In this document: positions 37,640 to 44,979 of the stretch, in pieces
Position numbering within the stretch: the first letter of the stretch is position 1
Layout of the letters: the number at the start of each line of letters is the position of its first letter
Source: Candidatus Micrarchaeota archaeon
Lineage (GTDB): Archaea > Micrarchaeota > Micrarchaeia > Anstonellales > Bilamarchaeaceae
DNA: 64,000 nucleotides
Assembly: GCA_030648615.1 (NCBI GenBank)
Contig: JAUSHJ010000045.1
Location: forward strand, 25,071 to 89,070
Direction of reading: 5' to 3'
Made by a program: the position numbers and the translations under genes
Notes under the pieces: model-generated
Databases searched by the model: none
What the model was told of the DNA's origin: nothing
Seen by the model: only the letters and a program-made list of their open reading frames with translations

Positions 37640-37725
37640 TCCGATTGTTCGATGTTTCGAACAATGGACATATTGTTGCGTTGCGCAACAATCTTGTCGA
37701 GACATTTGTCCTGCATGGGACAAAT
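37640..37725. repeat. Tandem-hairpin element, copy 3
   Basis: TCC-g-ATTGTTCGA-tgtt-TCGAACAAT-GGA; CAT-ATTGTTGCG-ttg-CGCAACAAT; ATTTGTCC-tgcatg-GGACAAAT. Confidence 0.9.
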
Positions 37726-40117: not shown

Positions 40118-41179
40118 ATGGAAATTTCTCAGGAAATGTTGGCTAGAGCAAAAAATAAAGGCAAGCTAATTCTTCATGATGAAGAGATAAAATACTCCAG
40201 ATTTCGGGAAGGTTCTGGTAAAATACCACGAGGAACAGTTTTGATTGGTGAAAGAATAATCTTTGGTTTTCCACACATTAAACGAATTTTCACGTTACAA
40301 AAAGGACTAGAAAAAAATATAACTGAGGACGAGTTTTACATAGAAGAGAAAATAGATGGATTCAATGTACGTGCTATATTGATTGATGGAAAGATTTTTG
40401 CATTTAGTAGAGGTGGATTCGTTGATCCTTTTGTAACTGAAAAAGTGAGAGAGATACAACTAGAAAAGTTTTTCTCTGATTATCCTAATTCCGTACTTTG
40501 TGGAGAGATGATTGGTAGAACACCTTATACCCGAAATGATTTTGAGCCTAAACTGCTTGTGTTCGACATTATGAATGCCGATGGAGAGTACGTGGAAGTT
40601 GAAAAAAAGTACGAAATACTAAAAAATTATAAAATTGATAGCGTCCCTACTTTTGGAAGATTTACTATAAAAAATATGGAAAAAATAAAACAAGTTGCAT
40701 TGAAACTCATGAAAGAAAAGAAAGAAGGCATGGTAATCAAAAGCAGAATTAGCAACCGCTGTAAATATGTGAATCCGTTTGCTGACATCCATGACATTAT
40801 TGGTAATGCAAGAATTATGTTCGACATGCCTTCTGGCTTTTTCATCCAGCGCGTTTTACGTTCAGCGATGTTTATTAGAGATTTCAAACTGGATGAAAAC
40901 AAGTACGCAAAAGAACTTGGCAGTGCATTTTATGGGAAACTTATTGAAACGCTAAAAGAAGTAGAAAAAGGAAAACTTATTGCAGAAGAATTTGAGATTT
41001 CCATAAAAGATGTTTCTATCTGGAACAAAATAGTAAAGCACATGGGAAAAGAGATAAAACTTGAGAAGATTTCGGAAAAGAAAGAGAATGGAAAATTAAG
41101 AATAAAATTTAGAAAAATATACAAGAGAACAAATCAGAAATTCCGGGAATTTTTATCCGGAAAGGGAATTGAGGATTAA
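40118..41179 (+). CDS. rnl: ATP-dependent RNA ligase, Rnl3/Pab1020 family
   Basis: GFPHIKR, motif I EEKIDGFNVR, FSRGGF, LCGEM, EGMVIK, KYV. Confidence 0.9.
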   Translation: MEISQEMLARAKNKGKLILHDEEIKYSRFREGSGKIPRGTVLIGERIIFGFPHIKRIFTLQKGLEKNITEDEFYIEEKIDGFNVRAILIDGKIFAFSRGGFVDPFVTEKVREIQLEKFFSDYPNSVLCGEMIGRTPYTRNDFEPKLLVFDIMNADGEYVEVEKKYEILKNYKIDSVPTFGRFTIKNMEKIKQVALKLMKEKKEGMVIKSRISNRCKYVNPFADIHDIIGNARIMFDMPSGFFIQRVLRSAMFIRDFKLDENKYAKELGSAFYGKLIETLKEVEKGKLIAEEFEISIKDVSIWNKIVKHMGKEIKLEKISEKKENGKLRIKFRKIYKRTNQKFREFLSGKGIED

Positions 41180-41193
41180 CTTTGCAGACCACT

Positions 41194-41315
41194 CCCAATT
41201 GTTCGATGTTTCGAACAACACGATTGTCCGGCGTACCGGACAATGTGCGCATTGTCGCGCTCGACAATTGCGTGGGCATATTGTTGCGTAGCGCAACAAT
41301 AATGTCGTGGCGGCA
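41194..41315. repeat. Tandem-hairpin element, copy 4 (with nested 54-bp hairpin pair)
   Basis: TTGTTCGA-tgtt-TCGAACAA; ATTGTCCGG-cgta-CCGGACAAT; ATTGTCG-cgct-CGACAAT; ATTGTTGCG-tag-CGCAACAAT. Confidence 0.92.
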
Positions 41316-41321
41316 GATCAA

Positions 41322-41855
41322 TTATATCGATAATTTTACGTAATCAATCAAATCATAACGCATACTTAATCCACTTTTTCTTTTCTTGGCCAAGTTCTGT
41401 ACGAAGCCGAGTTTCATATAGAAATCTATTGCTTTTTCGTATGCGTCAACAGTTACAAACCTACAACCAATTTCCTTAAGGATAGAAGATGCAATTTTAC
41501 CCATAGCTACCTTAACTAAAAATGTACCTATGCCAAGCTTTGCAAAATTTTTATGAACTGCCAACCTGCCTATCTTAACAGCTGGATATTCCCCCAACCT
41601 TTGTTTTGGTTCAGACATTGCTTCTTTTTCTCCTAAATCTAAACGGATGGAATCTGAAGAAAGACTAAAATAACCAACAATTTGGTTTTTGTGCAAACAT
41701 AAATAGGTAATTGCTAAAGCACCATTTTGATAAAGTAAAGCATCATCTTTAAGAAAAGAATTAAGATCTGAGTCACCACAATCAAAAGCAAGTAGATCGA
41801 AACCCGCTGAAAGTTTTACGATATCCAATTTATTAAAATCTATAATGTCTTGCAT
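41322..41855 (-). CDS. GNAT-family acetyltransferase, probable toxin
   Basis: FDCGDSDLNSFL, YPAVKIGRLAV, GIGTFL, GCRFVTVDAY, FYMKLGF. Confidence 0.88.
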   Translation of the reverse strand: MQDIIDFNKLDIVKLSAGFDLLAFDCGDSDLNSFLKDDALLYQNGALAITYLCLHKNQIVGYFSLSSDSIRLDLGEKEAMSEPKQRLGEYPAVKIGRLAVHKNFAKLGIGTFLVKVAMGKIASSILKEIGCRFVTVDAYEKAIDFYMKLGFVQNLAKKRKSGLSMRYDLIDYVKLSI

Positions 41856-41862
41856 TAAACCA

Positions 41863-42015
41863 CTAAAATGGTTTTTTTATATATAATTCGATACATTCTT
41901 TGATAAACTGAGCCTTCTTAAAACTAGGGTTAACCTCTGCATTTTCAGTTTCTTCATAGAACCTTTTTGCATCCTCTCCTTTTAGGATAGGAGTAGACTC
42001 GATTGGTTTTGCCAT
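41863..42015 (-). CDS. 50-aa putative antitoxin of the GNAT toxin
   Basis: Manual translation MAKPIESTPILKGEDAKRFYEETENAEVNPSFKKAQFIKECIELYIKKPF directly upstream of GNAT. Confidence 0.75.
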   Translation of the reverse strand: MAKPIESTPILKGEDAKRFYEETENAEVNPSFKKAQFIKECIELYIKKPF

Positions 42016-42129
42016 GTTTATACCTAACAAGATTATTTATAATCCTTATTTAAAAGTTATCGAATTTCAGGTGGAAAGGTGATTGAGGATTGAGTAACAA
42101 TTTAAACATATGTGAACAATAAACTACTT

Positions 42130-44847: not shown

Positions 44848-44979
44848 CTCAATTGTCCAATATTTTGGACAACATTATTGTCCAGCGGGACAATATGCAT
44901 CTTGTTGCTCATAGCAACAAGCTTTGACGCATCTGCGTCAAATTTTGTCAGGATTTTTATCATCCTGACAAAGCTTGTC
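44848..44979. repeat. Tandem-hairpin element, copy 5 (five hairpins)
   Basis: TTGTCCAA-tatt-TTGGACAA; ATTGTCC-agcg-GGACAAT; CTTGTTGCT-cat-AGCAACAAG; TTTGACGCA-tc-TGCGTCAAA; TTTGTCAGGAT-ttttatc-ATCCTGACAAA. Confidence 0.92.

Follow-up and report, generated by a model that had tools for sequence, protein, structure and literature searches.

The closest described relatives of the elements considered here are the REPINs and BIMEs, for which a doublet of inverted short palindromes has been proposed as the mobile unit, and which are described as inserting into or next to existing copies (PMC3116915). A bulge in the REP stem is reported to matter for enzyme binding (PMC3479197). According to bioRxiv 2021.07.10.451892, REPINs have gone undetected in archaea, and the IS200 subclass is the only one named as seen among archaeal Y1 enzymes in the account of PMC6006769. 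IS200/IS605 elements are described as excising precisely, as a single-strand circle, and inserting into a specific single-stranded DNA target (PMC5027513); the attC sites of integrons are folded strands in which one exchange yields an atypical Holliday junction that is resolved by replication (PMC8946536); and the mitochondrial double-hairpin elements and GC clusters of yeast are tiny mobile palindromes, which merge and shuffle (PMC4478555). A search of the literature on Micrarchaeota palindromic repeats, archaeal REPINs and RAYTs, and archaeal miniature elements, its scope lying mostly outside the subscription journals, found no report of such elements. How REP doublets move is unsettled even in bacteria.

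The 64,000-nt stretch of DNA analysed here (the window) is C56:25071-89070 of a Candidatus Micrarchaeota genome, G000, that comprises 1.65 Mb in 76 contigs and is ~90% complete. One of its hairpin arrays, copy 4, lies between two convergent genes, considered here as neighbours only: an archaeal RNA ligase of the Pab1020 type (40118..41179, plus strand; TIGR01209 over cut-off) and a GNAT acetyltransferase (41322..41855, minus strand). A small ORF precedes the GNAT gene (window 41322-42016), a layout like that of toxin-antitoxin pairs of the TacAT type; a similar-looking GNAT follows a recombinase gene at another locus, L358.

Copy 4 is built in three layers. The outermost is a small repeat, K (left part 41184..41193, right part 41305..41316, both plus strand), empty copies of which are present on, for example, contigs C38, C41, C44, C62, C65 and C67. 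Seated at T^T in the 3-nt loop of K is a doublet of the outer family, E, in which the left unit, L, has a foot of CCC or TCC and the right unit, R, one of CRY or CAA. The L hairpin of this host runs as far as a cut at CAA^ (41194..41218, plus strand) and is completed by its displaced foot, TGGG (41273..41276, plus strand), which in the predicted fold is paired with 41194-41198, so closing a four-way junction; the R hairpin, with its 3' bulge, follows (41277..41304, plus strand). Within the interrupted L hairpin lies the third layer, a 54-nt doublet of the nested family, N (41219..41272, plus strand), which is made of two R-type units. Unit 1 (41219..41247, plus strand, 29 nt, CAC-g-core-GTG) has a 3-bp foot, a 5' bulged G, a 9-bp perfect stem and a 4-nt loop, and unit 2 (41248..41272, plus strand, 25 nt, CGC-core-t-GCG) has a 3-bp foot, a perfect stem and a 3' bulged T; not a single base separates the two hairpins. 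The original prediction, that one 5'-bulged and one 3'-bulged unit had been placed exactly between ACAA and TGGG without target duplication, holds to the base: the 54-mer lies between ...GAACAA and TGGGC... and has no base in common with either flank (junction ambiguity 0 and 0). A third family of doublets, M, has feet of 2 bp.

That the doublet is the unit inserted, as had been proposed, is borne out by its occurrence elsewhere in the genome. The 54-mer is found four times, identical in the window, at C54:34806 and at C55:4199, and with one substitution at C70:8466. The four hosts differ in their L heads, their R heads and their outer flanks, with the head differences extending up to 5-6 nt from the junction; since the hosts differ in their own hairpins and flanks, host and insert did not move together in one piece. 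A filled and an empty sister locus (C70:8441 and C43:1973), whose hosts are 1 edit apart, share a private mismatch and have similar flanks, differ by exactly the insert. When 2 N, 1 M and 2 E doublets are removed from a 339-nt array on C54, their boundaries set by hand from the family rules, a 70-nt repeat remains that differs from a copy on C51 by 2 substitutions and by no insertion or deletion. No joined-end (circle-junction) or tandem form of a doublet was found in the genome, the single match being a case of M nesting.

The nearest empty relative of the host in copy 4 is copy 3 (37640..37696, plus strand), an intact E doublet with a TCC/GGA foot. The resemblance noted earlier between the two is real: the first hairpin core is identical and there are 5 edits in 57 nt. 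Copy 3 is nevertheless a paralog of copy 4 and not its ancestral allele. Might the short forms be deletions from longer ancestral arrays, or the arrays have grown by local slippage or fold-back, without any insertion? Some deletions between short repeats are indeed present. Copy 5 (44848..44897, plus strand) consists of an L hairpin cut at CAA^ plus a single N unit; the unit starts straight after ACAA, as had been noted, but the doublet is incomplete, its second unit and the rest of the host left hairpin, with the foot, having been lost. Its first unit is present in a complete doublet at C27:5739, and copy 5 is a deletion product. C55:13601, like copy 5, shows rearrangement between short repeats. 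At the 54-mer junctions, in contrast, no direct repeat supports a deletion, so that the derivation of copy 3 by this route, which the original prediction had raised against itself, finds no support. The same 54-mer sits in four unrelated hosts, the insert is not copied from adjacent sequence, and intact L hairpins outnumber interrupted ones by 75 to 18 (in one parse). A history of deletion or slippage is already largely refuted and is very improbable.

Sequencing reads are consistent with this copy number. In run X1, which is the only run containing the locus and, as the possible source of the assembly, is not independent of it, a 58-nt unitig over 41212-41269 has a depth of 36, as against ~10-11 on either side, which fits ~4 copies. 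No empty allele, lacking 41219-41272, appears in that run: no contig joint of X1 skips the insert (contigs drop rare variants). The copy 4 locus is absent from runs X2 and X3.

Doublets exceed the chance level. A C..G doublet parse finds 79 of them in G000, whereas two locally shuffled genomes yield 0 each; the window has 11 occurrences of ATTGT..ACAAT, compared with a shuffle mean of 3.3 and a maximum of 9. The many extragenic copies belong to several families (48 E, 18-19 N and 21 M rows), and most doublets land outside other doublets. The assembly is itself broken by doublet arrays, one 137-nt array being common to four contig ends (C24, C29, C70 and C71), so that the copy numbers given are minima and the rows include some duplicates. 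Hairpin heads are diverse, with 87 distinct cores among 132 and 13 head combinations among 18 N doublets. Four cores are common to N and E units; with single heads shared in this way by different doublets and families, a doublet does not persist as a clonal unit over long times.

Among the other frequent hosts of E, M and other doublets is a repeat bounded by TCAT direct repeats (e.g., C12:727-857, C51:20040 and C54:34635). It exists in a 130-nt form, near-identical among copies and containing two inner hairpins, one of which has the same TTTA loop as the local IS200 ends, and in diverged 66-70-nt forms without those hairpins; by the IS200 guide rule the repeat may be an IS200 MITE, a reading against which stands the lack of the hairpins in the short forms. 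An internally deleted IS200 with nested doublets lies at C44:45700-46250. In a related genome an E doublet beside an IS200 left-end hairpin has been copied together with it to a second place (G013:C3:15-44 and C3:135099-135128); doublets thus appear to hitch-hike on IS ends. A further family consists of TTGAC/TTGTC hairpins 1 base apart (C15:11377, C39:24442, C8:52536 and the window from 44922 onward), with an apparent 4-5-nt duplication, judged by eye, that overlaps the last stem bases, unlike anything in E, N or M.

The existing copies also define where each family goes. N doublets defined without reference to their flanks number 19, of which 17 are at CAA^TGG, one at CAA^TTG and one at CAA^AGT. 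Eighteen of the 19 interrupt an L hairpin in its 3' arm, 1 bp above the bulge and on the arm opposite to it (17 hosts identified by script, the 18th having a stem mismatch), and their polarity is constant: 18/18 begin with CAC or CAT on the CAA side, and unit 2 of copy 4 is on the TGG side in 8/8 genome copies that carry it. The tabulation of junctions across all copies thus yields anything but a random distribution. That 18 of 19 doublets sit at one bond without duplicated bases makes N likely to be a tiny mobile element that parasitises another. The proposed ACAA^T site is upheld as a rule for N (18/19) and for N only. After un-nesting, 48/48 E doublets have T on their 3' side and, on their 5' side, T (39), A (8) or C (1), and 0/48 are at CAA^TGG; E inserts at N^T in unrelated sequence. 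M is seated at Y^R, in most cases centrally within E or M (21 rows, some of them duplicates); the left Y was imposed by the filter, and the right R, which was free, is found in 21/21 rows, several of them from one repeated array. Arrays therefore grow by several targeting rules.

An A lies directly outside the R-type end, on its own strand, at 48/48 E right ends and at both ends of 18/19 N doublets; since N consists of two such ends, it is forced to A^T. The rule that the middle base of unit 1 sets the flanking base holds for N and for CG^ cases, fails for 9/48 E doublets, and was rejected. The CAATGG hexamer occurs at 963 genome sites, 70 of them non-coding and 45 in an intact L; as it is thus rare in non-coding DNA except within L units, targeting by the hexamer only is disfavoured just modestly (<= ~0.003, by hand arithmetic). 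Targeting of N by CNA^TNG only is excluded, there being 491 non-coding sites of this kind. Imperfect stems are found in 5/19 interrupted and 4/49 intact L hairpins, a difference that is not significant (p = 0.10).

The single site and single polarity of N in this genome (18/18) would also be produced if a filled L were copied into an empty L through the 5-6 conserved bases on each side, by gene conversion or template switching and with no dedicated enzyme for nesting. The swapping of heads between units and the rearrangements between short repeats at copy 5 and C55:13601 are in keeping with such homing, which is the main rival account of spread among L units. Set against it are the 13 N head combinations at the site, which require many founder insertions anyway, and the divergence of host heads almost up to the junction; homing also does not explain N-type doublets at non-homologous sites in other genomes or E doublets in unrelated sequence. 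Overall it is unlikely.

A loose E/N pattern is matched in 29/81 family genomes, with 76 matches in G000, 30 in G346, 16 in G001 and 1-7 elsewhere; a reversed-pattern control gives 7 matches in 6 genomes, and 21 of the 29 genomes have true hairpins, as judged from the matches listed. E-type doublets with CC feet are at T^T in 19/19 cases among those listed. Among the loci of other genomes that were examined, there are fifteen distinct N-type doublets (L068 and L098 merged by script; four of 19 rows left out, L069 and L089 as bacterial coding chance matches and L180 and L186 as another family at T^T). Ten are at A^T and five are not (three CG^T, one G^C and one A^G), in breach of the A^T rule. 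Six of the ten lie in a perfect stem by script and one more, by eye, in a decayed L; of the A^T cases, L033 is in an R unit, and by eye L062 is at the mirror bond of an L-type 5' arm, L115 in the stem of another family and L384 in plain sequence. E doublets at L191 (in G244) and L313 lie at GCT^TCG, in sequence that resembles the ends of DGR target genes in G000. A strict N-junction pattern was matched only by G000 among 301 genomes and was discarded as too strict. A broad contig scan returned at least 106 stretches, mostly chance; a metagenome scan returned 119, of which 9 passed a context filter and ~5 look real; 17 pattern matches in viral contigs included no true doublet; and Rfam gave no match near a gathering score.

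The hairpins themselves indicate what is recognised. Heads found by their foot motifs alone are Watson-Crick paired at 72/72 positions (N unit 1) and at 151/156 (L). Their mismatches include 1 G-T as against 3 A-C, with neither RNA-type wobble nor an excess of G-T, and foot pairs covary. Watson-Crick heads without a G-T excess, together with covarying feet, point to recognition of foot and bulge at the level of DNA. The same observations bear on a different route, in which doublet transcripts would be cut out, closed into circles and copied into DNA by a reverse transcriptase (RT) resident in the cell. An RT is present in 11/21 genomes judged to have true hairpins, the four richest among them, and in 13/60 others, a weak co-occurrence among kin that are not independent and in which larger genomes carry more of every mobile gene; doublets are also found in tRNA-intron contexts (L358 and L184). 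Yet no RT was found in G009, G003 or G023, the stems are not enriched in G-T, orientation to flanking genes is unbiased (20/15/12/9), and the ends are precise, with neither duplication nor tails. Spread through RNA is accordingly improbable. The RT of G000, split and of the DGR type, spans two frames (C71:1615-2722); of the RT matches listed for the family, 18/27 start at Pfam position 61-70 and lie in open frames of 158-263 aa, a pattern suggestive of a split that is conserved or of a programmed frameshift.

The preferred reading, which is probable though by no means assured, is that the 54-base doublet is a non-autonomous mobile element that a cut-and-rejoin enzyme inserts, with donor and target both acting as folded single strands. 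Folded as a circle, the 54-mer retains both hairpins (-21.8 kcal/mol), and the predicted fold of the filled locus is a four-way junction; any doublet in a stem yields such a junction, so the fold is no proof of mechanism. Because its hairpins abut, the folded doublet amounts to a nicked rod, into which the two hairpins would stack. If both junctions were cut and the ends rejoined, the product would be a closed dumbbell that has a 6-bp centre and two bulges, and the host would be restored exactly. Insertion would be the converse, a single strand exchange between dumbbell and host stem that generates a four-way junction, to be fixed by replication. We infer both the exit of the dumbbell and its entry, the latter modelled on attC and the precise single-strand excision on IS200/IS605. 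The enzyme would read foot and bulge, not head, and this would explain why heads are free in sequence yet perfectly paired. The likeliest chemistry is that of a phosphotyrosine enzyme, of the HUH or the tyrosine-recombinase type and acting in trans, for the present as a candidate only.

Searches for that enzyme have covered incomplete genomes throughout, so that their non-matches are not true absences. The single Y1 protein of G000 is a plain IS200 TnpA that has its own ends. In a search of this genome and 110 others, Y1 proteins occur in 5/8 pattern-positive genomes and in 25/103 of the rest; all inspected loci look like plain IS200 with their own ends, and none gave a candidate for the doublet enzyme. 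Y1 was not found in G337, G338, G009 and G230, which are rich in doublets and incomplete. Tyrosine recombinases are present in 16/21 doublet genomes and in 32/60 others, and were not found in the rich, incomplete genomes G346, G003 and G019. G000 has two, neither anywhere near the integron-integrase cut-off; TIGR02249 gives the three tyrosine recombinases that were scanned 33-53 bits, compared with a cut-off of 265. The recombinase beside a doublet at L358, which comes after a tRNA-like gene containing the doublet, is no integrase of the integron kind and was set aside. In five rich genomes (75-91% complete) the RAYT model NF047646 gave no match over cut-off (0/5), nor, in five rich genomes each, did models for IS110 (0/5) and serine recombinases (resolvase; 0/5); a Y2/IS91 model also gave 0/5, a count that carries no information, its control likewise being without a match anywhere. 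HUH motif scans, a look for transposase-like ORFs between paired arrays and paralog clustering at 45% identity yielded no candidate.

Some consequences can be drawn. The junction rule can be read to the base, and filled and empty pairs and a nesting order are at hand, so that a 54-nt oligonucleotide and a 25-nt hairpin constitute a complete substrate pair with which the enzyme could be sought and assayed. An insertase that is scarless, guided by structure and suited to tiny cargo would be a new chemistry of archaeal genome change and possibly a tool, and the spread of doublets would explain contig breaks and the growth of non-coding DNA in some Micrarchaeota. A larger claim is offered tentatively, as one that may well prove wrong: that these are a new class of minimal mobile DNA, two-hairpin elements of ~50 bases that depart as covalently closed dumbbells and insert by one strand exchange at a chosen bond, each end dictating the neighbouring target base, through an archaeal recombinase outside the known transposase families, in a hierarchy of hyperparasites (a K or T host, then E, then N and M) whose free heads might serve as programmable carriers.

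The doublets can be compared with each of the known systems. IS200/IS605 elements insert without target duplication, as does N; the doublets differ in that their hairpins are terminal and abutting, with the feet as the element ends and without guide or linker, and in that both ends constrain the target base. Against the IS200/IS605 pattern of a conserved tetra- or pentanucleotide target on one side only, N has CAA^ in 19/19 cases and also ^T in 18/19, and E fixes only ^T. Of the lagging-strand bias of IS200/IS605 no sign was seen by local GC skew (in short contigs a weak proxy), 27/59 doublets being on the positive-skew strand, and no TnpA was found in the four rich, incomplete genomes named above. 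The likeness to attC is one of anatomy only: a folded single strand, extrahelical bases and a variable terminal structure. The boxes of attC have the consensus RYYYAAC/GTTRRRY; the doublet units have no such boxes, and there are neither cassette genes nor a shared crossover base. Yeast GC clusters have a putative target duplication, which the doublets lack, and what sets these apart from the mitochondrial elements is family-specific targeting of a single bond in a cellular chromosome. REPs and REPINs come closest, with an inverted palindrome pair as the unit, many extragenic copies in several families and insertion into existing copies. The differences are that the 5' GTAG/GTGG tetranucleotide is absent, its place being taken by feet (CCCA, CCCG or TCCA; CACG, CATT, CGCA or CAAG) paired with the 3' arm; that the spacer is 0 nt, as opposed to the variable spacer between REP ends; that heads are variable where those of REPs are conserved; that junctions are A^T, N^T and Y^R rather than the CT of REPINs; and that no RAYT over cut-off was found in the five rich, incomplete genomes. 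The doublets work like a REPIN and fail REP membership as described, by the GTAG guide, the spacer, the conserved heads and the RAYT (PMC3479197, PMC6006769). Their precise, family-specific nesting is real, and it represents the way of life of the REP doublet in a new variant form.
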